A stretch of DNA of 64,000 nucleotides from an uncultured bacterium (GCA_964410905.1 CAYPIR010000002.1:14665-78664), one strand, 5' to 3'. Positions 3,605 through 23,825 are shown, counted from the first letter of the stretch. Numbers and translations are program-made. The notes: generated by a model from the sequence alone, not told the origin.

Positions 3605-5026
3605 ATGACATTGCAAAATGAAGATTCGTTTGAGCAACAAAAAAAACGAGTTAATATTTCATATCCTTACGGTAAACAAGACGTATCGTTTGGACAAGTT
3701 CCCGGCTCGCCTAAAAAACCATTTTTTTTAAAGTCTAAAATCAAATTCATTGTAATAGCGGTAGCGGCTATAGCTCTTATTTTTGTTGTAAAAACTATTC
3801 TTAATAAAAACAAACCTCAAAAAACCTCACTTCAGGACGCGATACAACAACAGCAGCAACAAGCAAAAGAAGCTCCCGTGGCAGTAAAGGCGTTTAAGGT
3901 TGCCCGGTTTAATTATGAAGATTCTATGAATGTTCTTGGAACTATAAAGGGCGGAACGGAATTAAAACTTAGTTTTGAAATCCCAGGCGTCATAAGTTCC
4001 ATCAATTATAAAGAAGGTGAGCGGTATGAAGACGGAGCTCTTCTTCTGTCGCTTCGCCAAGATGATATTTTGCTTCGTTTAAAACGCGCTCAAGCGGCGT
4101 TCAATAAGGCCGAGTCGCAAGCTAAAGTCACGGAAAACGAAGTCGCGGAAAACGAAAAACTTTTAAAGATGGGAGCGATTCCTCCGTCTACGGTTGAAAA
4201 GAAACGTTTGGAAATGGAGGCAGCTAAATTTGAGGCCGAGGCGCAGCGGCTTGAAATGAAGGCAAATGAGTCAATGCTTGAAAAATCAAATCTTTATGCG
4301 ACTTCATCAGGAATGCTCGGTTCTCTTAATGTCGGCGAAGGTGAAACTATTTCGCAAAGTACGCTTATTGGGACGCATATCAATATTGAATTTGTTTACG
4401 CGGAGTTTGGGATTGTGGAGCGCGATATGCAAAAAATTTCTCTTGGGCAAAAGGCCAAGGTATTTGTGGACGCGTATCCTGATAAAACTTTTGACGGCGT
4501 TGTAGAAAATATTGCGCCGCAAATTACAGGAACCAGCAGAACATCAACAGCGAAGATAAGAATAGAAAACCCCGACCGTCTTCTTTTGCCCGGTATGTTT
4601 GCGCGTGTTCGTATTCTTCTCTACACTAAAAAAGACGCGATTGTTATCCCTACAGACGCTGTTCAGGGCGGCGAAGACGAAAAGTTTGTTTATGTATTGA
4701 AAATGCCCGCTTCCAATGATTCCAAGCAAGATCCAAAACTTACCGATGCGATGGGCGGCGGCATTACGGCGCTCGCGGCGTTGGGCGCGGCGGGAAATCA
4801 AGCAAAGACATCGGGCGTAAAAAAAGTAGAGCCGACAGAAACCATTAAAAAAATTGAAGAAGGAACGGTTGAAAAACGGCCTATCGTTGTTGGTTATACG
4901 AGAACAGATTATTCTCAAATCGATGCGGGTCTTTCTGCCGGTGAGCTTGTCGCGATGACAGGTTTTGAACGCCTCGAAGACGGCAAGAAAATTCGTTTAA
5001 TTGAAACTCAAGAAGCCGAAGGGTAG
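3605..5026 (+). CDS. RND efflux periplasmic adaptor (HlyD/MFP family)
   Basis: Single N-terminal TM helix, then coiled-coil and beta-barrel/lipoyl-like segments typical of membrane fusion proteins. RBS AAGGAAGG. Lies between the TolC-like and RND permease genes. Confidence 0.75.
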   Translation: MTLQNEDSFEQQKKRVNISYPYGKQDVSFGQVPGSPKKPFFLKSKIKFIVIAVAAIALIFVVKTILNKNKPQKTSLQDAIQQQQQQAKEAPVAVKAFKVARFNYEDSMNVLGTIKGGTELKLSFEIPGVISSINYKEGERYEDGALLLSLRQDDILLRLKRAQAAFNKAESQAKVTENEVAENEKLLKMGAIPPSTVEKKRLEMEAAKFEAEAQRLEMKANESMLEKSNLYATSSGMLGSLNVGEGETISQSTLIGTHINIEFVYAEFGIVERDMQKISLGQKAKVFVDAYPDKTFDGVVENIAPQITGTSRTSTAKIRIENPDRLLLPGMFARVRILLYTKKDAIVIPTDAVQGGEDEKFVYVLKMPASNDSKQDPKLTDAMGGGITALAALGAAGNQAKTSGVKKVEPTETIKKIEEGTVEKRPIVVGYTRTDYSQIDAGLSAGELVAMTGFERLEDGKKIRLIETQEAEG

Positions 5027-5128
5027 TTTATTCTGTTATCCGGCGATGTTACAAAACAATGCGCGGAACGCGAAAAAATATTTGTTTTCTTAAACGAATA
5101 GCGGATTTATAAAGGATTATTTCACAGA

Positions 5129-8100: not shown

Positions 8101-8389
8101 AATGGTTGAGGCAGTGTGGGAAGCGACCAGAACCAGAACTCGTCCCGTTCTTATGTCTTCCACCACAACGATTATGGGTATGTTCCCGATAGCGCTTGGG
8201 CTTGGCGAAGGCGCCGGGCTTTTGTCGCCGCTTGCCGTTACCGCGATGGGCGGGCTTTTTTCTTCGACAATTCTTACTCTCATCGTTCTTCCGTGTTTTT
8301 ACATCATTGTAAACCGCTTTGTAGAAAAACTTCTCGGATATGAAGAAGAGATAATAGAAGTATCTGAGAATCCTTCCAGACCTCTCTGA
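5129..8389 (+). CDS. RND efflux transporter permease (AcrB/MdtB-like)
   Basis: 1086 aa with 12-TM architecture and two large periplasmic loops. Conserved RND stretches such as LSLGGLAIAIGMITDTSIVVLENI and a C-terminal VLPCFY. Confidence 0.9.
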   Translation: MSLPEFSIKKKVTIYMFTLGLILLGILSFKRLPQDLFPPITFPQVTIVTDYSNAAPEEIETLVTRVIEEAVGSVAGLKRIESVSREGRSTIMVSFNWGQDIDFAALALREKVDLIKERLPKECEDPVVLKFDPLSRPILLLSITAPDLPPVRMKLLAEKMVKDRLEKVEGVASVNLSGGVNREILVDIDGSRLQANHLSLLQVVDSLDEANVSYPAGSIKKGLYEYLIRTVGEFRSPAEIEYAVVGVDTVEKMRREETSFVEKDAGYGPRETIEKIRSELEKQTLEKRLVTVKDIGKVVDGLAEKTSVSRYNGSENISVAIQKQSNANTIQVVDRLRKELEFLEEDFHSRGLDVKIIYDHSTFIRNTIENLAHEAVQGGILALITLYIYLRAAAMSALVIVSLPLTILGVFFLMSLAGVTVNIMSLGGLAIAIGMITDTSIVVLENIFRKRQEEGLEPEKAAIDGATEVVWPVVSSNLTTIAVFFPLIVFVPGVAGQIFKDLAWAIIFSQVISTFVPLTLVAMLSIYVKVQQQDSKPLSITGNLDKKILSMRTPDEQNRLMIGILLSAFLLLASTFMIVPSIDREVLPKVDQGQFYVKVDMPIGVRLRVTDDVCKRIEKVLRSDKDVKDISVSIGSEKSSKGEIKVETLRASQALILVTLNPERERPSSQVVEFLRQKVDELRLEKDDAKIAFVLQESDFAVAGSSSKPVVLEVKGYDFKTMDDLVERLKKRLSEIPGIRDVQDDIGEKSPETKLDINKRRAALYGVSAMDISLTAKAAIEGVIATQYREAGREVDVRVRLSNKDRENISNIGSLLLYSKVLDVHIPLKEIANIERGLGPSEIKRMDQERTVTVSADIDKTRQDKDVLLDVQRFLQGLRVPEDIPQDFQVKLSGKAKEIKENFGGVIFAFVLAIMLVYMIMAAQFESFLQPLIIMVTVPLSFGGALIALKLTGTSFNVISLLGLVLLGGVVVGNGIVLMEYINQLRSEGKEMVEAVWEATRTRTRPVLMSSTTTIMGMFPIALGLGEGAGLLSPLAVTAMGGLFSSTILTLIVLPCFYIIVNRFVEKLLGYEEEIIEVSENPSRPL

Positions 8390-8391
8390 TT

Positions 8392-11300
8392 ATGGGACTT
8401 CCCAGCATCGCCTTAAAGCGTCCCGTGTTGACCGCGGTTCTTTTCATCGGAGTTATTGTTATTGGTTTTATTTCCTTGATGCGTCTTAAAGTTGAACTTT
8501 ATCAAGGGCAAAATCAGGGCATCGTTTCAATTGTCGTTCGCGCCCGCGGCGGACTTCCTTCTCAAGACGTAGAAAAAATGATTACAAAACCCATAGAAGA
8601 AGCCGTGGGAACAGTCAGCAGAATGAAAAGCCTTTACTCAAGTTCCCGTGAGGCTGAGTCCCGCGTAACTATGGAGTTTGAGCCCGGAACGGATATGAAG
8701 TTTGCCGCTCTTGAGGTCCGCGAAAAATTTGCCCGTGTAAAACCGCTTCTTCCAAGAGAAATAGAAAAGCCGGTTATAGCCAATTATGATGACGCGCAAT
8801 CCGCAGTATTGGTTTTTGCTGTAACTAGCGAGTCTAAGACTCCGGAAGAAATACGCGAAATGGTGGACGTGAAATTAAAACCCGTTTTGAGCCGAATTGA
8901 CGGCGTTGCCAGCGTTGAGGTTTACGGAGGAAGAGAACGGAAAATTTTAGTCGAACTTGATCGCGATAAAATGGTTGCGTACAACATTTCTATTGAACGA
9001 GTGATGGATGTTTTAGGTCAGAGCAACATCAATTTGCTCGCGGGAAATGTTAAGTCCGGCAGATATGACTTTGCCGTTCGTACGATGGGCGCGTTTATGA
9101 CAGTGGAAGAGGTCGGGGATATCGGCGTAAAAGCCACTAGGCAAGGCTCGATTATATCCTTGAGAGAAATCGGTACGATTAAAGATTCATACACGGAGGC
9201 TAATGATTACGCGCGTCTCAATTTAGACCAAAACGTTACGGTCTATGTAAAAAAAGCAAGTGTCGCGAACACTCTTGAAGTTGCTCGTGATTTAAATGCT
9301 TTGCTGGATTATTTTGAAGAAGAGCAAAAACAGGATATTAAAATTGTAGTGGTAAGCGACAAAGCGGATGCCATCGCGCGCGCGATTGGCGATGTTAGGA
9401 CTTCACTTTTAATCGGACTTGTTTTAACGATGTTTGTTATTTATATGTTTCTCCGCAAAGTTGTTTTGTCGCTAATTATCTTGGCTGTTATTCCGTGTTC
9501 TCTAGTCGCGACGTTTATTTTCATGGCTGCGTGCAATATCAGTATCAACATTATGACTTTGAGCGGGCTTTCGCTCGCGACAGGTATTTTGGTCGATACT
9601 GCCATTGTAATTCTGGAAAATATTTTTGCTCATAAAGAAAAAGGAATGAAGAACTTGGAGGCCGTGCACACGGGCAGTGAAGAAATCTGGTTGCCTTTGC
9701 TTGCGTCAATGACCACGACTCTTGTGGTGTTTATTCCGATAGTTCTTTCTGATAAAACAATACAACTTACTTACGGCGGTTTCGCTTTTACAATTTCGGT
9801 GTCGCTTGTTTGTTCGTTTGTTTCCGCGCTGATGCTTATTCCGATTTTAATTAGGCAATTCGGGCTCCGTGATCTGCAGCCGGAGAACGATAATTCCTCT
9901 GAAAGATTTTTAAGAAAACTCAAAGAAAAATACGGAGAAAAAATCCCAAAAATTTTAGCAAAACGGTGGATGGTTATAGGCAGTGTTAGCCTTATTTGCC
10001 TTTTCACTGGCTGGATGCTCTCTAAAACGCCGATAGACTGGCCGTCAACTTTTGAAGAAAACGAATTTGCGATAATTACATTTCCTCTTGCCGGAGCGCA
10101 GCTTGACACTAACGATGAAGTTATGAGAAGGATCGAAGAAATTCTTTCCAAAATTCCTGATGTTACTCTTTTTTCCACAACCGTTTCTAAAGATGATTTG
10201 CGGCTTTTTGTGCGTTTGAAGCCGTCTAGGCAAAGGCAATATTCCAAAGACGAAATTATGAAGTTGATTGACGAAGAAGGCAACGCGGCAATTAAAGAAA
10301 TTCATAATGATTTCAGCTTAATCGTGGACGAAGGCGGCGGAAGTTCGGAAAGTAAAAAACTTATTGTGAATATTTACGGACAAGACGGTGATGAATTAGA
10401 AAAGTTGGCGAAGGAATTTGCCAATCAGATGTCTAAAATTGATGGGCTTTCCAATATAGTCATGACTGACTTGCGGAAACGTCCCGAGTATTCGCTTGTG
10501 GTTGATAAGGGGAAGGCCGCGATGTATGGACTTTCAGTTAAATCTGTCGCCGACAGTATGCACGCGCAAGTCCGAGGAATGCGCCCTACAAAGTTTCACG
10601 AATATTCCAAAGGCGAAGAGATTGAAACTATCACGCGGCTTCAAGCAATTTATCGCCAAAAGTTAGAAGACCTAGGGCAAATATTTTTGGAAACAAAAGA
10701 AAACCGCCCTGTTGCCGTAAGCGAAATCGCAAACTTTTATCCTTCGGTTGGACCGCAAACCATTGACCGTAAAGAAAAGCATCGTTATGTATTTGTAAAA
10801 GGCGATGTGAAAAGACCAATAGAACTTGTTGCCGCCGATGCTAAAGCGCTGATTAAGAATATTAAACTTCCGGACGATTATTATTGGCGGTTCGGCGGCG
10901 GGTTTGATGAGTTGATGGAGTCGAAAACCGAACTTGGCTTCGCGGTTGTTTTGACTGTTTTTCTTATTTATATGGTTATGGCATGCCTTTACCAAAGTTA
11001 TGTTTATCCGCTTCTCATTATGGGAACGGTGCCTATGTCTGCCATAGGCGTTTGGCTCGCGCTTAGTTGGCCTATGATTATTTCAAAACCTTGGACGTGG
11101 CTTGGTCTCCCGACGGAATGGATTGGTTGGCTGCCCGCTCCGAAACCTCTTAGCACTCAAGTGTTTATTGGGATTATTCTTTTGGCAGGATATGTCGTAA
11201 ACGCAGGAATTATTTTAGTAGATACTCTTCTTCGCTTGGATGAAACAAAGCCGATGGAGGAACGTCTGATTATTACTTGTAAAGAACGCTTGCGGCCGAT

Positions 11301-11562
11301 TCTGATGACAGTAGTTTCCACGGTGATAGGTTTTTCGCCGATGGCTTTTAGTTTTGGTCAAGCGAGCGATTTGTGGGCGCCTCTTGCGATGACAATTATA
11401 GGCGGGCTTATTAGCTCAACTATTCTGACGCTTTTTGTATTGCCGTGTATGATTCTGTCCATGGAGGATTTGAAGAAATTTTTAAAAGGGGAACTGGAAT
11501 GGAAAATTCCGCGTTGGTTTCGCTTTTCTTTTCCTAAAAAGGCTATTGAAAAACATTTGTAA
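8392..11562 (+). CDS. Second RND efflux permease in tandem (MdtC-like partner)
   Basis: 1056 aa, paralogous to the preceding permease (LSGLSLATGILVDTAIVILENI). Its start lies 2 nt after the upstream stop. The arrangement resembles heteromeric MdtBC pumps. Confidence 0.9.
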   Translation: MGLPSIALKRPVLTAVLFIGVIVIGFISLMRLKVELYQGQNQGIVSIVVRARGGLPSQDVEKMITKPIEEAVGTVSRMKSLYSSSREAESRVTMEFEPGTDMKFAALEVREKFARVKPLLPREIEKPVIANYDDAQSAVLVFAVTSESKTPEEIREMVDVKLKPVLSRIDGVASVEVYGGRERKILVELDRDKMVAYNISIERVMDVLGQSNINLLAGNVKSGRYDFAVRTMGAFMTVEEVGDIGVKATRQGSIISLREIGTIKDSYTEANDYARLNLDQNVTVYVKKASVANTLEVARDLNALLDYFEEEQKQDIKIVVVSDKADAIARAIGDVRTSLLIGLVLTMFVIYMFLRKVVLSLIILAVIPCSLVATFIFMAACNISINIMTLSGLSLATGILVDTAIVILENIFAHKEKGMKNLEAVHTGSEEIWLPLLASMTTTLVVFIPIVLSDKTIQLTYGGFAFTISVSLVCSFVSALMLIPILIRQFGLRDLQPENDNSSERFLRKLKEKYGEKIPKILAKRWMVIGSVSLICLFTGWMLSKTPIDWPSTFEENEFAIITFPLAGAQLDTNDEVMRRIEEILSKIPDVTLFSTTVSKDDLRLFVRLKPSRQRQYSKDEIMKLIDEEGNAAIKEIHNDFSLIVDEGGGSSESKKLIVNIYGQDGDELEKLAKEFANQMSKIDGLSNIVMTDLRKRPEYSLVVDKGKAAMYGLSVKSVADSMHAQVRGMRPTKFHEYSKGEEIETITRLQAIYRQKLEDLGQIFLETKENRPVAVSEIANFYPSVGPQTIDRKEKHRYVFVKGDVKRPIELVAADAKALIKNIKLPDDYYWRFGGGFDELMESKTELGFAVVLTVFLIYMVMACLYQSYVYPLLIMGTVPMSAIGVWLALSWPMIISKPWTWLGLPTEWIGWLPAPKPLSTQVFIGIILLAGYVVNAGIILVDTLLRLDETKPMEERLIITCKERLRPILMTVVSTVIGFSPMAFSFGQASDLWAPLAMTIIGGLISSTILTLFVLPCMILSMEDLKKFLKGELEWKIPRWFRFSFPKKAIEKHL

Positions 11563-12180: not shown

Positions 12181-12209
12181 TTGATTTTATTTTTTTATGA
12201 AGTTATACT
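12181..12209 (+). promoter_or_regulatory. Sigma70-like promoter: TTGATT, 17-bp spacer, TATACT
   Basis: -35 TTGATT at 12181-12186 and -10 TATACT at 12204-12209, separated by exactly 17 nt. Located about 55 nt upstream of the 12263 ATG. Confidence 0.35.
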
Positions 12210-12262
12210 TCCCGTCGACCCTCGCCAAGCAGTTCATATTTCACGAAAGGAGTAACACAAAA

Positions 12263-12868
12263 ATGAAGAAGTTTAATGTAAGTATGTTGGTTGTACTAGT
12301 TGCTTTGTTGTTTGTTGGTTTCGGCATTCAATCTTATGCTATCGCCGCGGACAACGAACTTGTAATTGCGGATTTTGATACAGGAGATAAGCCGAATAAT
12401 ATCGGCGGCGACTTTGGTGGATGGGACAAAGATCCTAATGATGACACACAAGGGACAAAGGTAACGTTTGAATCCGATGATAGCCAAGGAGATCCTTCCG
12501 GCTATTCAGTTAAATTGGCTTATGACGTTGATTCCCCAAACCCTGCTTATAATGGCTTCTGGATGAAATTGAACGGCGAGGATGGAACCCCTTATAATAC
12601 ATTGAACTTCTATGTAAAAGGTGATGAGGCTATCGGCTACACCAAGCGCTTCAAAATCGAACTCAAGGATATGGGCAACAAGCCTTCCGCTTATATCGTG
12701 AGCGGCGTAACTGGTGATTGGCAAAAAATCTCTATTCCATTTGAGAAGTTTCGCAGGATTGAAGATTGGAGTGCTTTGAACGAACTTGTTTTTGTGTTTG
12801 ATGACATTAACACGACACCAAAAATCGGCGCGATTTATTTGGATCAAATCACGCTTTCTCAAGAATAA
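12263..12868 (+). CDS. Secreted protein of unknown function (possible carbohydrate-binding beta-sandwich)
   Basis: RBS AAGGAG precedes the ATG. Signal peptide MKKFNVSMLVVLVALLFVGFGIQSYAIAA. The rest is D/G/N-rich. Terminated by a strong hairpin. Confidence 0.6.
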   Translation: MKKFNVSMLVVLVALLFVGFGIQSYAIAADNELVIADFDTGDKPNNIGGDFGGWDKDPNDDTQGTKVTFESDDSQGDPSGYSVKLAYDVDSPNPAYNGFWMKLNGEDGTPYNTLNFYVKGDEAIGYTKRFKIELKDMGNKPSAYIVSGVTGDWQKISIPFEKFRRIEDWSALNELVFVFDDINTTPKIGAIYLDQITLSQE

Positions 12869-12895: not shown

Positions 12896-12932
12896 AAAAC
12901 GCCTTCGCTTTAAAAGCGGAGGCGTTTTTTTT
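12896..12932 (+). terminator. Rho-independent terminator
   Basis: Hairpin AAACGCCTTCGC / GCGGAGGCGTTT followed by a T8 tract. Confidence 0.6.
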
Positions 12933-13035: not shown

Positions 13036-14442
13036 ATGAAAAAAATCCTTGTGGTTGATGATGATATTTTAATTTTAAGAGCTATAACCCAAGCTCTTTC
13101 CAACAATTTTTTTGAAGTTATGGAAGCGCAATCCGGCAGCGAAACGGAGCGTATTGTTTCTGAGAATTCTTTTGATCTCATAATCTTAGATGTCAAAATG
13201 CCCGGGCAAGATGGAATATCGACGCTTGAAAAATTGCGTAAAGAGAGAAATTTAACTCCAATTATTTTGCTTACTGGTTATGCGGACGATGAGGCTGTCT
13301 CTAAAGCGAAAAAATATGGAATAGATGCCTATTTTTTAAAACCATTTGAAATGGAAGACTTGATAAAACAAGTGGTTAAGAGCCTTTATCCAAAAGGCGA
13401 AGGCGATGAGACAATAGCCGCTGTTAGGATTATTCCGGAATGGGCAGTTAGGTATCGCTATGTTAGAAAAACAGCAAATCGTATTTTTTCTGTATTTCAC
13501 AAAGCGACGACGCTTTATTTTAGATGGTTACGACGTTTGCGGTTTAGAGTTTTGCGAGTGTTTATATTTTCTATATGGCGGCATTGGCTTGGGAAAGTTG
13601 ATGGTTTGGAAAATCTTATGTGGGATGAACCTTGCATCATCGCGTCGAATCATACGAGTTATTATGACTTTATGGTTTTGGCACCATTTTTGGGAAGACA
13701 AACAGTTTTTTTGGCGAGCAAAAGTCTTGACAAGCGCTCATTTGTCGGTTGGTTTATGAAGTTTGACACAATTATTTATGTGGATAGAGATAAACCAGGC
13801 TACAAATTTTTCAAAGAAATTATTAGGCAAATCAAACTTAAACGGATGATTGTAATTTATCCCGAAGGGACTCGTTCACGCTCGGGAAAAATGCTTGCGC
13901 CAAAACTTGGGTTTTTGAAACTCGCGATGATGTGTCGCGTGCCGATTATTCCTCTTGCCATGAAGGGGACTTATAATATTTTGCCACCGCACAAAAAAAT
14001 GCCGCGATTTACTAAATGCGATATTGAAATTGGAAAAAAAATAAGCCTCACCCCTTCTAACCCTTTTTTGCGGGATGTTTTCCTTAGAACTGCTAAATCA
14101 AAAAAATATTCCGATTTGACTGACGAAGGCTTAGAAGAAATAGGGTTTAGAATTATGAATGAGATTAGGAAAATGTCAGGACAAGATTGGGACGAAACGG
14201 CTGTTGAGCTTGCAAAAAAATATAATGTTTTGAATGTCAATGAACATAAAGCTGTTGTTCCGAAAGCATTGCGTGAAATGACAAAAGAAAGTTTCCCGCC
14301 TTTTAATGACACGGAAGGTAGTAAGCCGCTTATCGCAACGTCCATAAATGATTGTGCTAGAAAGGACAAATGTGGTGAAGTCGATTTGCCTTCCGGCATT
14401 CGCGCATTGGGCGTGAAAGCGAGAAAAATCAAAACTTCATAA
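13036..14442 (+). CDS. Response-regulator receiver domain fused to PlsC-type lysophospholipid acyltransferase
   Basis: N-terminal REC with all conserved residues present: DD (VVDDDILIL), phospho-Asp (DLIILDVKMPGQDG), T (LLTGY) and K (LKPF). C-terminal LPLAT motifs NHTSYYD (HX4D) and YPEGTRS. An amphipathic basic linker lies between the two domains. Confidence 0.8.
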   Translation: MKKILVVDDDILILRAITQALSNNFFEVMEAQSGSETERIVSENSFDLIILDVKMPGQDGISTLEKLRKERNLTPIILLTGYADDEAVSKAKKYGIDAYFLKPFEMEDLIKQVVKSLYPKGEGDETIAAVRIIPEWAVRYRYVRKTANRIFSVFHKATTLYFRWLRRLRFRVLRVFIFSIWRHWLGKVDGLENLMWDEPCIIASNHTSYYDFMVLAPFLGRQTVFLASKSLDKRSFVGWFMKFDTIIYVDRDKPGYKFFKEIIRQIKLKRMIVIYPEGTRSRSGKMLAPKLGFLKLAMMCRVPIIPLAMKGTYNILPPHKKMPRFTKCDIEIGKKISLTPSNPFLRDVFLRTAKSKKYSDLTDEGLEEIGFRIMNEIRKMSGQDWDETAVELAKKYNVLNVNEHKAVVPKALREMTKESFPPFNDTEGSKPLIATSINDCARKDKCGEVDLPSGIRALGVKARKIKTS

Positions 14443-14452
14443 AAGGAAGTTC

Positions 14453-15106
14453 GTGAAAAAAGCAGTTTTTTTTGACATAGACGGAACGCTCGTTTCCTGC
14501 CAAACACAAAAGGAGTTGGCGAACGCGATGTTTGATGCGCAAATGATAAGATCAATGCATTTGTTGCAGATATGGATTTGGTTCGCGGGATATTATTTAG
14601 GGTTTGTTAAAAGCACAACGGATATTCGTAAAAAATTTTATCATTTTTTTTCTTTTTTTGAAAAAGAGAAAATCGATTCGCTTTTATTAAGTACCTATGA
14701 GAATCGAATTCGTCCCCAAATAAGAAGAGCATTGGTGGATGTTGCTCGGAAATTGAAAGAACAAAACTATGTCGTTGTGGCGGTTTCTGGAACACTTCAG
14801 CAGTTTTGCGATTTTCTTAAAAGAGATTTGAATTTTGATGACGCTTTTGGAACGCGCCTACTGGAACAAAAAAAACGTTACGCGGGCGCTTGGGAAGGCG
14901 ACATATTGGAAGGGGAATTTAAAAGTCGTTTCATAGAAAATTACGCCAAAGAACATGATATTGATTTACGAAAAAGTATTTGTTATGCCGATAGTCATAC
15001 AGACATTAAAGCAATGAAACTTTTTGGTGAAGCAGTAGCGGTCAGACCCGACGCTAAATTAAAAAAAGTGGCAGAACTCAACCAATGGAGAATTATTGAT
15101 GAGTGA
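14453..15106 (+). CDS. HAD-superfamily subfamily IB hydrolase (SerB-like fold)
   Basis: GTG start with RBS AAAAGGAAG. HAD motif I FFDIDGTLV, a cap region, and a C-terminal D-containing motif (YADSHTDIKAM). Confidence 0.75.
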   Translation: MKKAVFFDIDGTLVSCQTQKELANAMFDAQMIRSMHLLQIWIWFAGYYLGFVKSTTDIRKKFYHFFSFFEKEKIDSLLLSTYENRIRPQIRRALVDVARKLKEQNYVVVAVSGTLQQFCDFLKRDLNFDDAFGTRLLEQKKRYAGAWEGDILEGEFKSRFIENYAKEHDIDLRKSICYADSHTDIKAMKLFGEAVAVRPDAKLKKVAELNQWRIIDE

Positions 15107-17402
15107 GTTTTTGAAAAATCAATACGCTATTTCCGCAATATTGACTTCTGTTACAACTTTTTTGTTGGCGGTAATTGTCTGGGGGAAAAATAACAAGCGA
15201 AAACTTAACAGAATTTATTTATTTTGGGCATGTTCTATAAGTTTTTGGGCTTTTTCGCTTTTTCTTAGCCTTTACGCAACTGATGCGAATACGGCTCTTG
15301 TTTTTTCAAAATTGTTGCATTTATGGGCAATTATATTGCCATCGGTTTACGTGCACTTTGTCTTGTCATTTCTTAAAGAAACTGAAAAGTTCAAAAAAAT
15401 TATAAATGTTTCTTATGGCGTAGCGCTATTTTTAATTCTTTGCAACTTCTCTCCTTGGTTTCTAAATGTTAGTTATCAAGAAGCATTCGATTTTTACGTT
15501 ACTAAACCTCTTATGCTTTATCCGATTCATATGGTTGTTTTTGCCGCTAGCGTTTTATTTGCCATTCTTCGCCTTTATGTAAGCTTCAGAAAAAGTAGCG
15601 GGCTTGAAAAAAAACAAATAGGAGTGTTCTTCTTTTCTTCCATCATAGGCTATTCGGGAGGCCTCACAAATTATCTAATTAATTATAATATTTCTATATT
15701 TCCACTTTATCCGTTTGGGAATTACACCATTTGTGTTTATGTCCTAATGATGGGATTTGGGATTTTGCGCTACAAACTTTTGGACATTCACATCATTATT
15801 AGACGGACATTTGTGTTTGCCGGATCGTTTATTTCTTTGTGGTTTATGGTCGCTTTGCTTACCATTCTTTTTAGAGATTATTTAGACCAATACATAAATG
15901 TAACGCCAAGGGTTTCTCGGGGCATTTCTATTTTGGTAGCTATGTTTTTATTTGATCCGCTGAGAAACTGGCTGACAAATTTTACTGATAAGTTTCTTTT
16001 TCAAAAGAAATATGATTATCACAAACTTTTAAAAGATGCTTCGCGTGGAATGTCGAATATTGAATCGCTAGAGCATCTTTTGGGACTTGTCGCGCATTTT
16101 ATTACGATGAAAATGCGAGTTAAAAATGTGGCGGCGCTTATGCTTTTGCATGGCACAACGGATAAATATGGTTTGGTATATCAACGAGGTTTTGAAAAGA
16201 AACAATTATCATTTTCATTGGACAAAAATGATGCGCTTATCAGATACTTGAACGAGCACAGAGAAGCTATTGACAAAGACATTGTTAAAGAAGATTTGGA
16301 ATCATCATTCATAACAACATTCGACTACAATGAAATTATAGGGAAAATGGATGAGTTGAGAGCGGGCTGCTGCATCCCGAGTTTTCTTGGGAAAGATTTG
16401 AAAAGTATTTTGTTTATAGGCTCCAAAAAGTCCGGAGAAGATTTTTCTTCTGAGGATTTAAGTCTTCTTTATACACTCGCGCAAGAATCGTCCATAGCTA
16501 TTGAAAACGCGCGGCTATATGATGAGGCTGTGAATAGGTCTCAAGAATTGCAAGGTATTAACGACAGGTTGGAAATTTCAAAACGTGATTTGGCGGAAGC
16601 TTTAAGAAAAGCGGAAATCGCGAATTGTCAATTGAAAGAAACACAAATGCAGCTTGTCCATGAGCAAAAAATGGCAACGCTTGGAAGACTGGCGGCGTCT
16701 GTCGGGCATGAAGTCAACAATCCTTTGACTATTCTTTCTATGAATGTTTCACGCGTGATTTTAAAGCATCGCAAAAGTGGAGATTTGAAAGTAGCGGACA
16801 TTTTGGAATATCTTAAAAATATGGAAAAAAGCATTGAACGAATAAAAGCGGTCGTAAACACTTTAACGGGACTTTTGAAGAAGTCAGAAAAAGGACAGTT
16901 TGAACCTCTGTCGCTCAAGTTGATTTTAGAAGAAACATTGCCATTAGTTCAGTATCAAACTTATTTGGATAATCTTTCAGGGACAGAAGTTGATTTGAAT
17001 GTGTCGGGCGGCGTTCCTCTTATTCGCGGAAATTTAGAACGGTTGCAGGAAGTTTTTTTAAATCTTTTTATAAATGCTTATCACGCCATGGAAGGGCGGT
17101 TGAATAGAAAAATTTGCGTAAAAGCGACCTTGGATCCGCAAGACGCAAATATGATAAGCATTCTTTTTACGGACAATGGTTCGGGAATGAGTCCTGAGAT
17201 TGCGAAAAAGGTTTTTAATTATGGATTTACGACAAAGGCTTCGGGCAAAGGTTCCGGGCTTGGGCTTTATATGTGTAAGTATATTATTGAACTGCACGGC
17301 GGCTCAATAAGTGTGGATACCAAGTTGGGCGAGGGCACAACTTTTGCTCTGAAATTACCCATCTGCACGGAAGAATCTCTTTTATCGCAAACGTCTGCGT
17401 AA
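15096..17402 (+). CDS. Sensor histidine kinase with about 8-9 TM N-terminal sensor domain
   Basis: The N-terminal third is a multi-pass membrane domain. HisKA H-box SVGHEVNNPLTIL. HATPase N/G boxes (NAYHAM, DNGSGM, GSGLGL). Overlaps the upstream gene by 11 nt. Confidence 0.85.
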   Translation: MMSEFLKNQYAISAILTSVTTFLLAVIVWGKNNKRKLNRIYLFWACSISFWAFSLFLSLYATDANTALVFSKLLHLWAIILPSVYVHFVLSFLKETEKFKKIINVSYGVALFLILCNFSPWFLNVSYQEAFDFYVTKPLMLYPIHMVVFAASVLFAILRLYVSFRKSSGLEKKQIGVFFFSSIIGYSGGLTNYLINYNISIFPLYPFGNYTICVYVLMMGFGILRYKLLDIHIIIRRTFVFAGSFISLWFMVALLTILFRDYLDQYINVTPRVSRGISILVAMFLFDPLRNWLTNFTDKFLFQKKYDYHKLLKDASRGMSNIESLEHLLGLVAHFITMKMRVKNVAALMLLHGTTDKYGLVYQRGFEKKQLSFSLDKNDALIRYLNEHREAIDKDIVKEDLESSFITTFDYNEIIGKMDELRAGCCIPSFLGKDLKSILFIGSKKSGEDFSSEDLSLLYTLAQESSIAIENARLYDEAVNRSQELQGINDRLEISKRDLAEALRKAEIANCQLKETQMQLVHEQKMATLGRLAASVGHEVNNPLTILSMNVSRVILKHRKSGDLKVADILEYLKNMEKSIERIKAVVNTLTGLLKKSEKGQFEPLSLKLILEETLPLVQYQTYLDNLSGTEVDLNVSGGVPLIRGNLERLQEVFLNLFINAYHAMEGRLNRKICVKATLDPQDANMISILFTDNGSGMSPEIAKKVFNYGFTTKASGKGSGLGLYMCKYIIELHGGSISVDTKLGEGTTFALKLPICTEESLLSQTSA

Positions 17403-17413
17403 AGGTGCGAAAA

Positions 17414-17776
17414 ATGAAAAAAATTTTAATTGTGGACGATGAGGTCGGGATACTTGAGGAAGTGAAAAGTTTTTTAGAAGAAGAAGGTTTTTCTGTTCAG
17501 TCTGCCGATACGGTGAAGGAAGGAATCGTGCAGTTAATTTCCTTCGCGCCTGATCTTGTTATAATTGACGGGAAGCTTCCGGACGGCTCTGGGGTTGATG
17601 TTTTGCGTTCTATTCGTGACCAATCTTTAGAAACAAAAGTTATTATTTCAACGGGTTATGTTGATCAGTCTTTTATCGATGAAACCAATGCTTTAAAAGT
17701 AAATCTTTTTTTGCAGAAACCTTATGACCTCGTGCGGCTTCTTGATGAAGTCCGAAGAGTTTTTGCGATGGAATAG
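17414..17776 (+). CDS. Single-domain response regulator (CheY-like receiver)
   Basis: ILIVDDEVGI, phospho-acceptor Asp in DLVIIDGKLPDGSG, conserved STGY and LQKPYD. Start chosen at the ATG with RBS AAAGGTG (an in-frame GTG lies 9 nt upstream). No output domain. Confidence 0.8.
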   Translation: MKKILIVDDEVGILEEVKSFLEEEGFSVQSADTVKEGIVQLISFAPDLVIIDGKLPDGSGVDVLRSIRDQSLETKVIISTGYVDQSFIDETNALKVNLFLQKPYDLVRLLDEVRRVFAME

Positions 17777-17832: not shown

Positions 17833-18372
17833 ATGAATTTTATAAAAACAACGATAGAAAATTTAATAGTGATTGAGCCGAAAGTTTTTAATGACGAGCG
17901 AGGCTTCTTTTATGAAAGTTATCAAAAGAGAATTTTTGAAGAAAATGGCATTTTAGATAATTTTGTTCAGGATAATGTTAGCCATTCCTCAAAAGGCGTT
18001 TTGCGTGGGCTGCATTTTCAACGACCGCCGCATGCTCAGTCAAAACTTGTCCGTGTTGTTCGCGGCTCGGTTTACGACGTGGCGGTTGATATTAGGCAAG
18101 GCTCAAAGACTTTCGGACAGCATTATGGGCTTGTTCTTTCAGCGGAAAACAAAAAGATGCTTTTCATTCCCAAAGGATTTGCGCACGGTTTTTGTGTTTT
18201 GGAAGATGAGACGGAGTTCGCTTATAAATGTTCTGATTTTTATTCGCCTAAAGATGAGACCGGAATATTATGGTCTGATCTAAACCTTGCGATTAAATGG
18301 CCTAAGCTGGATGTCCCGTTTATTCTCTCCGATAAAGATAAAAAATATCCTCCATTAAATGAAGCCATTTAA
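17833..18372 (+). CDS. rmlC: dTDP-4-dehydrorhamnose 3,5-epimerase
   Basis: MNFIKTTIENLIVIEPKVFNDERGFFYESY and the RGLHFQ/HGF segments are typical of RmlC cupin epimerases. Confidence 0.85.
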   Translation: MNFIKTTIENLIVIEPKVFNDERGFFYESYQKRIFEENGILDNFVQDNVSHSSKGVLRGLHFQRPPHAQSKLVRVVRGSVYDVAVDIRQGSKTFGQHYGLVLSAENKKMLFIPKGFAHGFCVLEDETEFAYKCSDFYSPKDETGILWSDLNLAIKWPKLDVPFILSDKDKKYPPLNEAI

Positions 18373-19139: not shown

Positions 19140-22100
19140 TTGAAGGCTATCGCTTCGTTTTTTGTTGCCGTTTTTATTTCCGCTCAAATATTTATCCCTA
19201 TAACTTTTGCGGCCAGACCGCTTTCGATATTTTCCGATCCTTCAGGGAAAGACGCAGTTGACTCGGCAAAGCTCAATGTTTCTCAAGGAGTAAGCTCAAC
19301 AAATCGAAGCGATGACCGCACAAAGGCCCATTCGTCTCCTGCCGACTTAAAAAAACTTTGGGAAGAGGGTGTGCGCGTTGACAAATATTCTCTCGATGGG
19401 ATTAGTTATGAACAAGTTGCGGGCGCTCGCGGATTTAAAATCGCAAAAATACCAGGAAGATATGCTATAGAAGCAGAACACAATAAACCGGTTTTTGAGG
19501 ACCACTCCGTAGATCTTCCATATGATGAAACTAAGCCGACTTTTAGCAAAGTTGTCCGGGAAAAGCCGGATCAGACTTTGCTAAAAACAGAAATTGAAGG
19601 AATCCCTGTTTATTACAATCGAAATTGGGCGCCTCTTTTACCATATCACTTTCTGGTGTTGATTGACCCTGATGCTAAACGAAATCAGACTATAGATGAA
19701 AAGTCTCTTTTTATTGCTTTAACCGCGCTTGAGAAAATTGGCGACAGAAGGTCTTTTCTTGCTATGAATGTCGGATATGCTGCCGGCGCTTCTATTAATT
19801 CGCAACATTTTCAAGGCTCATTTGCCGAGAAAGCAAGAGTTGAGAGACGACCTGTTGGAAAAGAGATTTTTAAAACGGGTTATGATTACATAAATGTTTG
19901 GGAGTTTGCCGATGATGATGAACCAGCTTTTATTGTGGATGCTCCTTCAAAAGAAATACTTGCTAAAACGGCGACTGTAATTTCTGATTACTTAAAATTG
20001 TTAGATATCCCGTCCAACATCTTTTTCCGCGTTCCAGAACAAGATAAGTCTTGGAGATTGTATATAGAACCTCGGTCGCGTGTTCGGTCCCAGCTTTTTC
20101 CCGGCAACGTTGCGTGGATGGAAGTTATGCTAGGACAATTTTTTAATGATGGCGCAGTTGAGTTTACGGAAGAAAATATATTGGAGGCTTTAAAAACGGC
20201 AAGCCTTTCGCGCTCCGAGTTTGATGTTTTGAAAAAATATCTGCCTCGATTTTTTGCGGAAAGAGAAAATGGAGAATCTGCTAGAGCTGTTATTGAGACT
20301 CTGAAGAATGAAATAATGCCTTTTCAGCCTAAGCCCACAAAGTCTGAAGTCCGCCACGGCATTTTAAATAATGCTTTTGATTTGATAAAAGATTCTTCGC
20401 TGGAGAATAAAGCAAAGAGACTTGGTGAAAAATTGGCGCAAACGGTTGATTTGGATATGTTTGATAGCGCACGTGAGATTTTAGAATCGTCCAGCGGAAC
20501 ATTTAACGCGGAAACCGCAAGTGAGGTTTTGGAAAAAGTTTTTCCATTTATAGAACAAATGAATTCTATCAAGCGGTATAGTCCGACAGGAGAGACGACA
20601 ATATGGACGCATTCGGCTCGCATTGCGAATATGAGTGATTCTTTGGGAGTTGACGAGGATAAATTTTACGCGGATTTTGGCGGTATTTCGTATAAGGGAG
20701 AAAAGCTTTCTGACGCGACTTGGAATGAATATGCGGAATTGCAGCAGGAGTTTTTTCAAGGCAGCAAAGAAAATCGTCTTGCGTTGCGGCTTACGGCGCT
20801 TTTTCATGATATTGGAGTTCTCATTCAAATGCAATCTCATGAGCCGGTTGGCGCGATTGTTGTGAATGACATTTTAGAAAAACTTCCGATAGCGGAAGAG
20901 ACAAAGCAGCTGATTTTATGGGGAGTGGCAAATCATCTTAATCTTGGCGTTATGGGGTTGGGCGAACGAACTCCATCTTATGCTAAATCGAGATTGGATA
21001 TTTTGCCCGAAAATTTGCGGCGGTCAGCAAGCGCTCTCATGACTTTGATTCAGGCAGGAGAGGTCCGCTCGCTTGTTGAAATAAAAGATAACGGAAAACT
21101 TTTTAACGGGCGGTCGGCTGGATTTTATGTTGATGTCGCGAATACTGAAAAGTTTGCCAAGCTCTCGGCTGATTATGACGACTATCGCTTGAGGATTTTT
21201 TCTTCAAATGGCAACTGGATTTTAGATGAAAAAAAATACGCTGAGGTGAAACGTTTGATAGCGGAAGAAATACCAAAATCAGAGCGCCAGCAGTTTGAAA
21301 AATACTTGAGAGAAGTAAATGAATGGACTGACTACGGCGCATATATCATGCAAGAACTTTCAGCCCGCGGAGTCGTTCTTGCTCATTATCTTTTGAGTCA
21401 AGTTTCCAAGATTTATGACAATAAGATTAGACGTTTTCAATTAACCGCGCCGAGAAACGCCGCGAAGGCGGAGGCGCGCGGGCTTGATTTGTTTTTCTCT
21501 ATTGATAAAACAACTTTTTCCGATTTGGCGGTGGCAGGGAAAAACCCTAAGCAAATTAAAGCTATCTTTGAAAAATTTAAAATATCAGTTCCTAAATCTA
21601 AGGCGTTCATTAAATTTGATACGGATGCTTTTAAGGATTTGGGGAATATCGCGATAAATAGTGTTTTGAATACAGAAACGCCAGTTGTGGCGTTTGTCGA
21701 TGCCGCCGATTTCGCGGAAATGTCAAACGCGCAGAAAAAAGAGTTTGTGCTTGTGGCGGCCAAAACCAAGTCAGTAAAGATAGTAGTTTATAACGATAAC
21801 GGGGAACGAAATGAATCGGCAGCAGAATTATTAAAGCTGCCTAGAGTGATTGCGACCAATAAGGATTTGGCGGAAGCGGCAAAAGAGTTTGGCGTTGATA
21901 AAGTAACAGCGGTGCAAATATCAAAGACTATTGAGCCGAAATATTTTGATGCAAGGGTAGGATATTTTAAAGCGACTAGTGATGCGGGCGGGATTTTGGC
22001 GGTGGCAATTTTATGGGCGATATCCGGTGGGGAAAACGCGAGGATTATTGGCATACAAAAATACGGACGGTTCTGGGCAGTGGACGAGACTTTTCTTAAT

Positions 22101-22151
22101 TTAATTCAACATGAGATAGAAGCGAATTATGCAATAAACATCGCGGTGTAA
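19140..22151 (+). CDS. Large secreted multidomain protein: GDP-hexose phosphorylase (VTC2/GDPGP1)-like HIT domain + HD phosphohydrolase domain
   Basis: TTG start with strong RBS AAAAGGAG. Signal peptide MKAIASFFVAVFISAQIFIPITFAA. Residues about 150-230 carry LLPYHFLVLIDP and VGYAAGASINSQHFQ, resembling the GalT-branch HIT motif of GDP-L-galactose phosphorylases (...GYNSLGAFATINHLHFQ). Residues about 545-600 carry LRLTALFHDIGVL...NHLNLG, an HD-domain signature. Confidence 0.8.
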   Translation: MKAIASFFVAVFISAQIFIPITFAARPLSIFSDPSGKDAVDSAKLNVSQGVSSTNRSDDRTKAHSSPADLKKLWEEGVRVDKYSLDGISYEQVAGARGFKIAKIPGRYAIEAEHNKPVFEDHSVDLPYDETKPTFSKVVREKPDQTLLKTEIEGIPVYYNRNWAPLLPYHFLVLIDPDAKRNQTIDEKSLFIALTALEKIGDRRSFLAMNVGYAAGASINSQHFQGSFAEKARVERRPVGKEIFKTGYDYINVWEFADDDEPAFIVDAPSKEILAKTATVISDYLKLLDIPSNIFFRVPEQDKSWRLYIEPRSRVRSQLFPGNVAWMEVMLGQFFNDGAVEFTEENILEALKTASLSRSEFDVLKKYLPRFFAERENGESARAVIETLKNEIMPFQPKPTKSEVRHGILNNAFDLIKDSSLENKAKRLGEKLAQTVDLDMFDSAREILESSSGTFNAETASEVLEKVFPFIEQMNSIKRYSPTGETTIWTHSARIANMSDSLGVDEDKFYADFGGISYKGEKLSDATWNEYAELQQEFFQGSKENRLALRLTALFHDIGVLIQMQSHEPVGAIVVNDILEKLPIAEETKQLILWGVANHLNLGVMGLGERTPSYAKSRLDILPENLRRSASALMTLIQAGEVRSLVEIKDNGKLFNGRSAGFYVDVANTEKFAKLSADYDDYRLRIFSSNGNWILDEKKYAEVKRLIAEEIPKSERQQFEKYLREVNEWTDYGAYIMQELSARGVVLAHYLLSQVSKIYDNKIRRFQLTAPRNAAKAEARGLDLFFSIDKTTFSDLAVAGKNPKQIKAIFEKFKISVPKSKAFIKFDTDAFKDLGNIAINSVLNTETPVVAFVDAADFAEMSNAQKKEFVLVAAKTKSVKIVVYNDNGERNESAAELLKLPRVIATNKDLAEAAKEFGVDKVTAVQISKTIEPKYFDARVGYFKATSDAGGILAVAILWAISGGENARIIGIQKYGRFWAVDETFLNLIQHEIEANYAINIAV

Positions 22152-22319
22152 TGGAGTAAGTATCGAAAGTTCTCCATTGTATATAAATATAAAAAAATTT
22201 TAAAATCCGCTTTTAGAAGTGGATTTTTTTTTGTCTCGTGATAGAATCCGCCATTCCGGAAAGCTGGGAAATGTTACAAGGTATTGCAAATTAGTTTAAC
22301 CAACCTACAGGAGACAAAG

Positions 22320-23825
22320 ATGTTTATCTCTAAGAAATTTCTTGCTCTGTTGCTCGTGGTCGGAACTGCATTCACACTTTCCGGTTGCGCAACTTGTTGC
22401 ACAGATAAACCGGCAGCTTCGAAAAGCGGAGTAATCCGTGGTTCTATCGGAGTTCCAGATTGCGAAAAATCCACAAGCCCACTTCACATTGATAAGGAAG
22501 CCCCTAGCCAAGTGGTTGTCGGCAGACCTTATTCTTACACAATTACCGTTAAGAACGCGTCCAAATGCGCTCTCGAGGACGTAGTTGTAACAGAACGCGT
22601 TCCTGAGAAGTATGAACTCAAGACCGCGACGCCTACGCCTACTAAGGTTACTGGTCGCGTGGCGCAATGGGATATCGGTTATTTGAAACCGGGAGAAGTT
22701 AGAACCATCACTATTACTGGTGTTGCGTTGGACGCTTCTTCAACAACTGCTTGCACGAAGGCAACTTACAATCCTGTTCTTTGCCTTGGTCCAGAAGCAA
22801 TTTCTCCTGCTTTGAAAGTTGCTTTGGAAGCACCTAGCCAAGCACTTCTTTGCGATGTTATTCCCGCTAAGATTATTGTAAGCAATACGGGAACTGGTTC
22901 TGCGGAAGGTGTTTCAATCACCCAAGCATTGCCTGACGGCTTGACAACCACTGATGGGAAGAACACCGTAACTATTAACGTTGGTGATCTTGCTGGTGGC
23001 GCATCTAAGAATTATGCGGTCAATCTCAAAGCATCTCAGGCTGCAAAGTATTCCAATAAAGTTAGTGCCGTTTCTAAAAACGGTCTTTCCGCTAGCTCCA
23101 GTGTGGTTGTTACAGATGTAAAACAACCGTCATTGAAAGTCGCGGTAAGCGGTCCTTCCAAGATTTTTTCTAACAAGAACGCTGATTTTAAAGTCAATGT
23201 TCAAAACGTTGGAAGTGCTGACGCGGCAAACGCAGTTGTCCAAACCACGATTCCTGCTGGATTCAAATTTGTTTCAGCGGATCAGGGCGGAGTTGCTTCC
23301 GGTAATGCGGTTGTTTGGAACATCGGAACTCTTGCTGCCGGAAAATCTGCTGCTTTGAATACCACATTCAAAGCGGTTAGTGCTGGCGCTGGACAAAGCG
23401 TTGCAACGGCAAAGGGAACTTGCTGTTCTGAAGCTTCTGCTGTTACTAACAGTGAAATTAAAGGTATCCCTGCTGTTCTTTTAGAAGTTGTTGACAGCGA
23501 TGACCCGATTGAAGTTGGTGATGCGGTAACATATTATATTACTGTTACCAACCAAGGTTCTGCAGATGACACTAACATTGTTATCAAATCCGCTCTTGAG
23601 GACGAATTTGATTATGTCTCTAGCAGTGGACCTACGAAAGCAAAGGTTGAATCTGCGAAGGCTGTGGAATTTGCAGCTCTTGCGGTTTTGAGACCAGGCG
23701 AAAAAGCGACATGGGCAGTTGTTGCAAAAGCCGTTGCTGAAGGAGATCATCGTTTTGCGACTAAGTTGACGAGCGATGCTCTTAGAACATCGGTTGATGA
23801 AACGGAATCTACTCATACATATTAA
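22320..23825 (+). CDS. Cysteine-rich lipoprotein with tandem DUF11 (conserved repeat) domains, OmcB-like
   Basis: RBS GGAGA. Lipoprotein signal LLVVGTAFTLSGCATCC. At least three repeats of the DUF11-type beta-sandwich pattern (PS/QALLC..., VKQPSLKVAVSGPSK...NVQNVGSADA, DPIEVGDAVTYYITVTNQGSADD). Confidence 0.75.
   Translation: MFISKKFLALLLVVGTAFTLSGCATCCTDKPAASKSGVIRGSIGVPDCEKSTSPLHIDKEAPSQVVVGRPYSYTITVKNASKCALEDVVVTERVPEKYELKTATPTPTKVTGRVAQWDIGYLKPGEVRTITITGVALDASSTTACTKATYNPVLCLGPEAISPALKVALEAPSQALLCDVIPAKIIVSNTGTGSAEGVSITQALPDGLTTTDGKNTVTINVGDLAGGASKNYAVNLKASQAAKYSNKVSAVSKNGLSASSSVVVTDVKQPSLKVAVSGPSKIFSNKNADFKVNVQNVGSADAANAVVQTTIPAGFKFVSADQGGVASGNAVVWNIGTLAAGKSAALNTTFKAVSAGAGQSVATAKGTCCSEASAVTNSEIKGIPAVLLEVVDSDDPIEVGDAVTYYITVTNQGSADDTNIVIKSALEDEFDYVSSSGPTKAKVESAKAVEFAALAVLRPGEKATWAVVAKAVAEGDHRFATKLTSDALRTSVDETESTHTY

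Follow-up and report, generated by a model that had tools for sequence, protein, structure and literature searches.

Introduction

On the usual view, the synthesis of bacterial membrane lipids is controlled mainly through transcription, substrate supply and a few small-molecule effectors. Among the acyltransferases involved, PlsC of Thermotoga maritima (structure 5KYM) has an N-terminal segment of two helices that anchors it at the membrane interface and lines the acyl tunnel. In mycobacteria, the protein Rv2483c has both a HAD-IB-like and a PlsC domain. PMC10593935 names this protein among the conserved PlsC homologues without confirmed activity, and the plant enzymes GPAT4/6/8 are bifunctional sn-2 glycerol-3-phosphate acyltransferases and HAD-type phosphatases that yield monoacylglycerol (PMC11127019). 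The attachment of receiver (REC) domains to ordinary metabolic enzymes, for its part, is a documented general practice (PMC5847659). Here we analyse 64,000 nucleotides of DNA from an uncultured bacterium of the Omnitrophota (GCA_964410905.1 CAYPIR010000002.1:14665-78664; below, 'the window', to which coordinates refer unless another locus is named). Positions 13036-17776 hold four confirmed + strand open reading frames (ORFs), encoding a fusion of a receiver to a PlsC-family acyltransferase (AT), a HAD-IB phosphatase, a HisKA_7TM kinase and a lone receiver. We found that the fusion is a derived, deletion-type join of two genes that lie side by side in many relatives from Candidatus Omnitrophota, where the acyltransferase, phosphatase and kinase recur as a conserved cluster. 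This suggests that membrane-lipid acylation in Omnitrophota is switched directly by signalling proteins.

An initial annotation, made from the sequence alone, had proposed the domain order REC-PlsC, HAD, kinase and lone receiver, and Pfam and NCBIfam profiles confirm it. The features are as follows, with the supporting evidence in brackets; AF2 stands for AlphaFold2 and REC1 and REC2 for the fused and the lone receiver.

13036-14442, + strand: fusion ORF, 468 amino acids (aa)
13036-13395, + strand: REC1 domain, residues 1-120, with phospho-acceptor D52 (Pfam, orthology, AF2, Foldseek)
13396-13446, + strand: fusion junction and linker, residues 121-137, PKGEGDETIAAVRIIPEWA (alignment, distance arithmetic)
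13447-13611, + strand: N-terminal basic amphipathic helical segment of the AT, residues 138-192 (composition, AF2, family profile)
13612-14235, + strand: PlsC-type AT core, residues 193-400, motifs I-IV (PF01553, 5KYM, motifs)
14236-14442, + strand: window-specific C-terminal tail, residues 401-468 (alignment, AF2)
14453-15106, + strand: HAD-IB phosphatase of the TIGR01490 type, partner of the AT, 217 aa, GTG start
15096-17402, + strand: membrane histidine kinase with HisKA_7TM sensor, weak GAF-like middle, HisKA and HATPase_c, 768 aa, TTG start
17405-17776, + strand: stand-alone receiver REC2, 123 aa (D55, T83 and K105 by inspection)

Results

An intact receiver joined to a PlsC-family acyltransferase

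Both halves of the fusion protein retain the catalytic motifs that the initial annotation had picked out. The receiver matches Response_reg (PF00072) over residues 4-113 (99.7 bits, E 1.4e-28, threshold 30.2 in Pfam) and has the key residues D9/D10, D52, T80, Y99 and K102, each of which is invariant in 13 REC1 orthologues. Its AF2 model consists of five beta-alpha units with pLDDT values of 85-91 and matches RR468-type receivers with a Foldseek TM score of 0.93-0.94 at a root-mean-square deviation of ~1 Å; the receiver accounted for most of the Foldseek matches, which were uninformative for the AT. The curated profile score, the (beta-alpha)5 fold and the residues of phosphorylation chemistry together make the domain a member of the REC superfamily, and a pseudo-receiver reading was rejected because all the phospho-residues are present.

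The second half matches Acyltransferase PF01553 over residues 187-310 (93.7 bits, E 1.1e-26, threshold 23 in Pfam), with NHTSYYD at 205, YVDR at 248, PEGTR at 276 and VPIIP at 302. N77, H78, D83, E149 and R152 (family alignment numbering) are invariant in 42 members of the AT family. The profile and all four lysophospholipid acyltransferase (LPLAT) motifs, the catalytic HX4D included, thus place it in the PlsC/lysophospholipid acyltransferase family (PF01553; AGPAT). Its score of 89.0 bits against TIGR00530 lies below the NCBIfam cut-off of 102.95, so we name it a PlsC-family acyltransferase and not an assured lysophosphatidic acid (LPA) acyltransferase. The closest solved structure to the family is 5KYM (E 1.1e-26), and the window AT is 55-68% identical to stand-alone Omnitrophota ATs. 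There is no AT paralogue within the 64-kb window. The initial annotation had also left room for lipid A remodelling. No family of the lipid A late acyltransferase (LpxL/LpxM) type appeared at E <= 0.01 in Pfam, where only two families matched, nor among the best 25 of 110 NCBIfam matches. The families seen across the two libraries were PF01553, TIGR00530 and PRK08633, and on these matches lipid A acylation is unsupported and was rejected, the AT belonging to another acyltransferase family (PF01553, 5KYM-like).

The stretch that precedes the AT core (residues 128-192) has a strongly basic composition (15 K/R vs 3 D/E) and is rich in aromatic residues. AF2 places a helix over residues 123-185, a hydropathy scan found no Kyte-Doolittle transmembrane helix in the fusion protein, and the AT family profile has 65 positions ahead of the core, which is the length of the N-terminal segment of 5KYM. 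Modelling and composition make it probable that this amphipathic segment is an interfacial membrane-binding motif. By region, the AF2 model is below pLDDT 50 in the linker (122-136), moderate in the AT core and disordered in the tail (401-468, pLDDT ~30); it was built on a shallow 7-sequence alignment and its inter-domain geometry is uninformative. The 68-residue tail has no counterpart in any relative in alignments across the related loci, where the AT stop overlaps the HAD start and no such extension follows. An antisense ORF at 13971-14555 (194 aa) that overlaps the tail is probably spurious.

A deletion-type junction between two coupled genes

We annotated 21 distinct related Candidatus Omnitrophota loci by BLAST against stop-to-stop frames (L001 and so on below; related proteins are P0003 and so on). 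None of the 21 joins receiver and AT in one frame. The fused receiver is the reciprocal best hit to the relatives' REC1 (104-114 bits, vs 49-61 bits for REC2), and it and REC2 are the only two receivers in the window. The window's AT, HAD, kinase and REC2 all group with the L004/L005/L001 clade, the kinase being 61-63% identical to its members vs 38-39% to outgroup loci. The window REC1 breaks this pattern, with just 48-50% identity to the same clade, whose own REC1s share 73-83% internally and 51-63% with the outgroup. It deviates at 12 of the 43 near-invariant REC1 columns, where other members do so at 0-9 (median 3), and the changes sit at D+1/D+2, the beta4-alpha4 loop, alpha4, the alpha4-beta5 loop and alpha5. 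Such deviations, with all six residues of phosphorylation chemistry kept, would fit a remodelling of the output surface after fusion.

At the junction, the receiver core is kept to about residue 120 and is followed by a short Pro/Gly/acidic linker, after which the AT is entered ~20 residues in. In the split loci, the place of this linker is taken by the ~55-aa C-terminal extension of REC1, an intergenic spacer and the ~20 residues with which the AT begins. The distance between the first codon of the receiver and the conserved AT motif VRYRY is 411 nt in the window vs 619 nt in both L001 and L004. The shortfall of 208 nt is 1 mod 3 and equals the frame offset (+1) of the split genes, and the frame is open across the junction with the other two full of stops. 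This agreement between shortfall and offset argues for a deletion-type fusion and not for a 1-nt or base-calling frameshift. A single deletion joining two translationally coupled genes would, on the alignments, yield the window junction; in L004 the REC1 and AT genes overlap by 8 nt. No remnant of the REC1 extension was found in the 64 kb in six frames, the C-terminal tail included, and a rearrangement model was rejected because the displaced extension does not appear in any of these frames. In the closer relatives this extension is conserved and helical, without a Pfam match (for example at L001:7445-7978, L004:1582-2115 and L003:7318-7875), and it is absent from more distant REC1 orthologues as well as from the window fusion. 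It could serve to dock REC1 onto the acyltransferase.

The fusion is a singleton. In a search of 5.8 billion clustered proteins, no match but the window protein itself had both REC and AT. The 41 close homologues are stand-alone ATs from Candidatus Omnitrophota (257-313 aa, 41-68% identity) that cover only the C-terminal ~56% of the query. A phmmer search of 1.84 billion representatives gave no second REC+AT protein among the best 150 matches (at least 117 bits), a range below which distant REC-PlsC fusions would have escaped. All candidates of suitable length were checked in Pfam, and the two-stretch matches long enough to hold REC and AT were REC-REC, hybrid kinase, REC-GGDEF and REC-2Fe2S proteins. 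The top matches of a REC1-family profile search were stand-alone receivers only, and our literature search found no response regulator with a PlsC-family output, the topics REC + PlsC, TIGR01490 and CicA giving no relevant result. REC-PlsC can therefore not be called a conserved architecture, as these searches found it in one assembly only and the relatives have two genes. By sequence the protein belongs both to the REC superfamily and to PF01553; no established 'REC-PlsC' family was found.

These results bear directly on a rival explanation for this metagenome-assembled genome, in which the one-ORF arrangement stems from an error of assembly or consensus, or from a deletion that is deleterious and very recent, such that the genes are in truth separate or the chimera non-functional. 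The lack of a second occurrence in any of the above searches or in JGI contigs is what this explanation would predict, as is the fact that the five nearest AT relatives (P0003-P0007) all have a separate 178-aa REC1 on the same contig. The fusion has also lost the ~20 N-terminal AT residues and the conserved REC1 extension. We nevertheless consider this explanation quite unlikely. A net deletion of 208 nt restores the frame exactly, leaves no in-frame stops and is not an error of the homopolymer type, the linker PKGEGDE is not a simple juxtaposition of the relatives' sequences, and the catalytic motifs of both halves are intact. The diverged REC1 and the unique C-terminal tail likewise argue for an old event over a fresh artefact. 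The initial annotation had itself named a frameshift artefact without orthologous fusions as the result that would undo it: orthologous fusions were indeed not found, but the frameshift does not stand, as the junction needs a 208-nt deletion.

A module with interchangeable signalling domains

The neighbourhood, which the initial annotation had proposed to test for conservation, is present in the related loci. Their order is REC1 (178-186 aa), AT, HAD, HisKA_7TM kinase and REC2, followed in the closest by rmlC, and this AT-HAD-7TM kinase-REC cluster recurs across Omnitrophota. A HisKA_7TM-like kinase lies within ~3 kb of the AT in every locus (21/21), HAD is adjacent to the AT in 16/21, and a REC1 receiver gene stands immediately upstream of the AT, in another frame, in 12/21.

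In one lineage another signalling domain occupies the position of the receiver. P0144 and P0389, 41-42% identical to the window AT, carry a PilZ domain fused to the N-terminus of the homologous AT (33.8 bits in P0389, which has RxxxR and a (D/N)xSxxG-like motif), and P0125 is probably a second, divergent PilZ-AT, its PilZ match being sub-threshold at 18.2 bits. The P0144 locus (L085:50-5620, JGI 3300031707 Ga0315291_10031092) encodes the PilZ-AT, HAD, a HisKA_7TM-GAF kinase, REC and an HD-GYP-type (HD_5) protein, and from its gene content looks like a cyclic di-GMP (c-di-GMP)-wired version of the same module. The PilZ-ATs show that the N-terminus of this AT gained a signalling receiver domain independently of the window fusion. 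Moreover, in P0372 (L086:3778-9887), encoded beside genes for a HisKA_7TM-GAF kinase and for two lone receivers, a REC1-like receiver is fused to a 4HBT_2 thioesterase-like domain, and in P0101 (L088:1108-4145), encoded beside genes for acyl carrier protein (ACP) and an HMG-CoA-reductase-like protein, one is fused to a complete ketoacyl synthase (KAS). In L003 a receiver gene directly precedes a block of KAS, methyltransferase, ACP, hydratase and lipase genes that leads into REC1-AT. In this phylum, signalling receivers have thus been attached repeatedly to acyl-lipid enzymes, by adjacency or by fusion, and the functional link between receiver and AT that was first proposed from the window alone gains support from the upstream REC1 genes and from PilZ at the equivalent position. 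P0066, P0377, P0383 and P0388 were grouped with the receiver-enzyme fusions of acyl-lipid metabolism.

One to four extra HisKA_7TM-type kinases lie directly upstream of REC1 at L001:4728-6986, L004:74-1480 and L005:1-6263, where the window has efflux genes, so that REC1 may take input from several kinases in these genomes. This observation bears on a second explanation, in which the protein is a true fusion whose receiver has no part in gating catalysis. REC1 would then be a phosphate sink or connector for several HisKA_7TM kinases, co-expression would keep it beside the AT, and the fusion would merely tether the receiver to the membrane surface through the amphipathic helices of the AT. The extra kinases of these three loci accord with such a role, as do the great abundance of single-domain receivers in Omnitrophota, the lack of a predicted inter-domain interface (pTM 0.46) and the nine of 21 loci that have no REC1 beside the AT, which indicate that REC1 is not obligatory for the module. 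We still judge this reading rather improbable, because PilZ, which has no phosphate-sink role, occupies the same AT N-terminus in the same module, because REC1-like receivers are fused to two other acyl-lipid enzymes, and because REC1 and AT are translationally coupled, with the 8-nt overlap in L004.

The phosphatase, the kinase and the second receiver

The HAD protein matches PF12710 (76.4 bits in Pfam) and passes TIGR01490 marginally (98.8 vs 98.3 bits in NCBIfam), which makes it a HAD-IB member of the type first annotated, if narrowly. Its motifs are DIDGT at 8, VSGT at 111, K157 and DSHTD at 180, and its nearest relatives are phosphoserine phosphatases, with histidinol phosphatases also near. 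Five relatives (P0124, P0133, P0138, P0219 and P0230; 432-510 aa) are AT+HAD single chains with the domains in the gene-pair order of the window. These single-chain proteins support the view that AT and HAD form a catalytic pair, and the proposed functional pairing thus holds up on both adjacency and fusion.

What the pair acts upon is a separate matter. L009:5510-6925 encodes a FadL/TodX-family outer-membrane channel (E 2e-45) directly upstream of a stand-alone AT, and L086 also has such a channel near its REC-thioesterase gene; these neighbours hint at the handling of exogenous fatty acids. A third alternative, which concerns the substrate only and is compatible with control by signalling, is that AT and HAD use a non-glycerolipid acceptor (a lyso-aminolipid, a scavenged lysophospholipid or a specialised lipid of the neighbouring KAS/ACP/reductase genes), with HAD preparing or trimming a phosphorylated head group, and that the product is not phosphatidate or diacylglycerol. 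We rate this as possible though doubtful. It would account for the sub-cut-off TIGR00530 score, for the kinship of HAD with phosphoserine and histidinol phosphatases, for the L003 module lying beside KAS, ACP, enoyl-CoA hydratase and GDSL lipase genes, and for the FadL/TodX channel in L009 and the MMPL/sterol-sensing transporters in L001 and L004. On the other hand, 5KYM, the best structural-sequence relative of the AT, is a genuine LPA acyltransferase, the four LPLAT motifs of the window AT are all canonical, and the one characterised AT + HAD combination consulted acts on glycerol-3-phosphate (PMC11127019).

The kinase ORF starts 11 nt before the end of the HAD ORF. In Pfam it matches HisKA_7TM (PF16927) over residues 15-231 (63.1 bits vs a threshold of 28.6), HisKA over 529-590 (26.9 bits, exactly at the cut-off) and HATPase_c (75.5 bits), with GAF_3 sub-threshold at 344-471. 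The H-box HEVNNPL at 538 is followed by NLFINA at 656, DNGSG at 693 and GKGSGLG at 717. With its 7TM module, the phospho-accepting His of the DHp domain and the N, G1 and G2 boxes of HATPase_c, the protein is a HisKA_7TM sensor kinase. The initial annotation had described a sensor of 8-9 helices. Its membrane character is upheld and the count is approximate: Pfam defines seven helices (7TM), and by hydropathy 6 helices are strong and others weaker, one of the latter lying at 240-258 beyond the Pfam match. An ortholog follows AT-HAD in the related loci, with a catalytic part 75-78% identical in the closest. REC2 matches PF00072 only (80.6 bits in Pfam) and is the reciprocal best hit to the relatives' REC2 (129-134 bits).

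Genomic setting

The features that flank the module in the window are as follows.

1702-3558: TolC-like outer-membrane efflux protein, part of the efflux set upstream of the module
3605-5026: HlyD-type adaptor, part of the same set
5129-8389 and 8392-11562: two tandem AcrB-type RND pumps, part of the same set
12906-12924, + strand: terminator-like hairpin and T-run after the preceding gene (consensus scan)
17833-18372, + strand: rmlC, dTDP-4-dehydrorhamnose 3,5-epimerase (TIGR01221, 256.9 bits)

The hairpin and an intergenic gap of 167 nt ahead of 13036 suggest that an operon starts there, on weak evidence, as the consensus scan returned 9 sites vs 7.7 expected. At the other end, rmlC follows REC2 in L001, L004, L005 and L009, the closest relatives only, and its membership in the module is uncertain. 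A few genes 3′ of rmlC, L001 and L004 carry an MMPL/sterol-sensing-domain transporter.

The tripartite efflux set directly upstream (1702-11562) is complete and is not part of the module in relatives. Between it and the module, 12197-12868 encodes a protein of 223 aa that is secreted and whose CBM_11-like match stays below threshold (25.9 vs 27 bits). Its 75%-identical homologue at L009:1769-2368, ~4.6 kb upstream of the L009 AT, makes it far more conserved between the window and L009 genomes than the module proteins are. Downstream lie a 1003-aa protein with only a borderline HD domain (19140-22151; 22 bits, GlnD-like region) and a 513-aa DUF11/CARDB-repeat surface protein (22284-23825); L001 also has a CARDB/CLIPPER-type protein 3′ of the module. 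Almost all long ORFs of the window (1-64000) are on the + strand. GC skew is positive in every 2-kb bin and the cumulative skew rises monotonically, which places the whole window on one replichore with a strong gene-strand bias. GC content is 0.36-0.385 across 12-18 kb, where the module lies, vs about 0.40-0.45 nearby.

Discussion

We propose, with moderate confidence, that the locus belongs to an Omnitrophota-specific, signalling-controlled lipid-acylation module in which a kinase controls an AT/phosphatase pair, and that in the window the normally separate regulator has become covalently attached to its enzyme. The catalytic core would be a PlsC-family AT and a HAD-IB phosphatase that share one lipid intermediate. 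By analogy with plant GPAT4/6/8, the likeliest chemistry would be that a glycerol-phosphate-type acceptor is acylated and the product then dephosphorylated, giving a neutral acylglycerol, although HAD may instead prepare the acceptor. This core would be co-transcribed with a 7TM(-GAF) histidine kinase and single-domain receivers. REC1 would ordinarily be the product of a separate gene, translationally coupled to that of the AT, as in relatives; in the window lineage a net deletion of ~208 nt would have removed the REC1 helical extension, the spacer and the first ~20 AT codons, giving an in-frame join and, in the cell, a single protein. The kinase may sense a membrane or envelope cue and phosphorylate D52. 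The resulting change in the alpha4-beta5-alpha5 face would be relayed via the ~15-residue linker to the N-terminal amphipathic helices of the AT, which may govern membrane docking or access to the acyl tunnel and so turn acyl transfer on or off. REC2 would be a second output, as in the branched phosphotransfer that the initial annotation proposed, or a phosphate sink.

Several observations weigh against this proposal. The fusion is known from one assembly, its protein cluster having a single member on a single contig. The JGI metagenome contigs, when scanned, gave distant receivers but nothing close to the fused lineage, and no close relative of it came from the GTDB representative genomes, where a single-sequence scan had no match and a family alignment did. 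The AF2 model has a pTM of 0.46 without confident inter-domain packing, so no such packing can be claimed. REC1 is missing from beside the AT in 9/21 related loci, the miss against TIGR00530 leaves LPA acyltransferase activity not assured on profile scores, and relaxed constraint could explain equally well why the fused receiver has diverged faster.

A receiver on a PlsC-family enzyme would represent a different route of lipid control, in which a membrane sensor kinase or c-di-GMP switches an acyltransferase directly. The case gains strength from the presence of PilZ on the same enzyme in a sister lineage and of related receivers on a ketoacyl synthase and a thioesterase-like domain. Tentatively, and less firmly than the proposal above, we suggest that Omnitrophota lipid enzymes (the PlsC-type AT, ketoacyl synthase and thioesterase-like proteins) may be direct post-translational targets of two-component and c-di-GMP signalling. 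REC-PlsC would then be a covalent snapshot of a REC1-AT complex that is non-covalent in relatives, and would be the first kinase switch of phospholipid acylation at the level of the enzyme and not of transcription. More interesting than the fusion itself is the wider pattern of an AT-HAD-7TM kinase module that spans the phylum and in which REC and PilZ are interchangeable as inputs, accompanied by the REC-KAS and REC-thioesterase proteins; this pattern appears to be undescribed. The finding also provides a hypothesis at the level of function for a recurrent gene cluster of an uncultured phylum that may be host-dependent. The window protein, with regulator and enzyme joined in one chain, is the simplest test object, and the split versions of its relatives are a natural control.

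Comparison with described systems places the fusion among several partial likenesses. The enzymatic-output response regulators (CheB, PleD/WspR, RpfG, PorX and the RssB-type PP2C proteins) likewise have an N-terminal receiver, a flexible linker, an enzyme and an adjoining kinase gene, and PorX structures were the top multi-domain Foldseek matches, via the REC part only. The window protein differs from them in its PlsC-family output and in being a singleton derived from two adjacent genes. With T. maritima PlsC (5KYM) the window AT shares the HX4D, xxxR, EGTR and VPxxP motifs and the length of the N-terminal segment. In contrast to 5KYM, the Omnitrophota family has ~90 extra conserved C-terminal residues (to about window residue 400) and is linked to HAD-IB and a 7TM kinase, and the window member carries an N-terminal receiver. 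Plant GPAT4/6/8 combine a PlsC-superfamily AT with a HAD-type phosphatase, as do the Omnitrophota AT-HAD single chains. The phosphatase is N-terminal in the plant enzymes, whereas in Omnitrophota it is encoded downstream or is C-terminal; the plant enzymes are not known to be under two-component or c-di-GMP control, and the likeness is drawn by analogy. Proteins of the Rv2483c type share HAD-IB and PlsC with the window pair, but in the opposite domain order and with no signalling domains. The PilZ-ATs (P0144/P0389) have the same AT family and, like the window fusion, a small signal-receiver domain at its N-terminus, and in P0144 the same HAD, HisKA_7TM kinase and REC follow downstream. They differ in that the input would be the binding of c-di-GMP and not phosphorylation, and in the HD-GYP-type gene that follows in the cluster.

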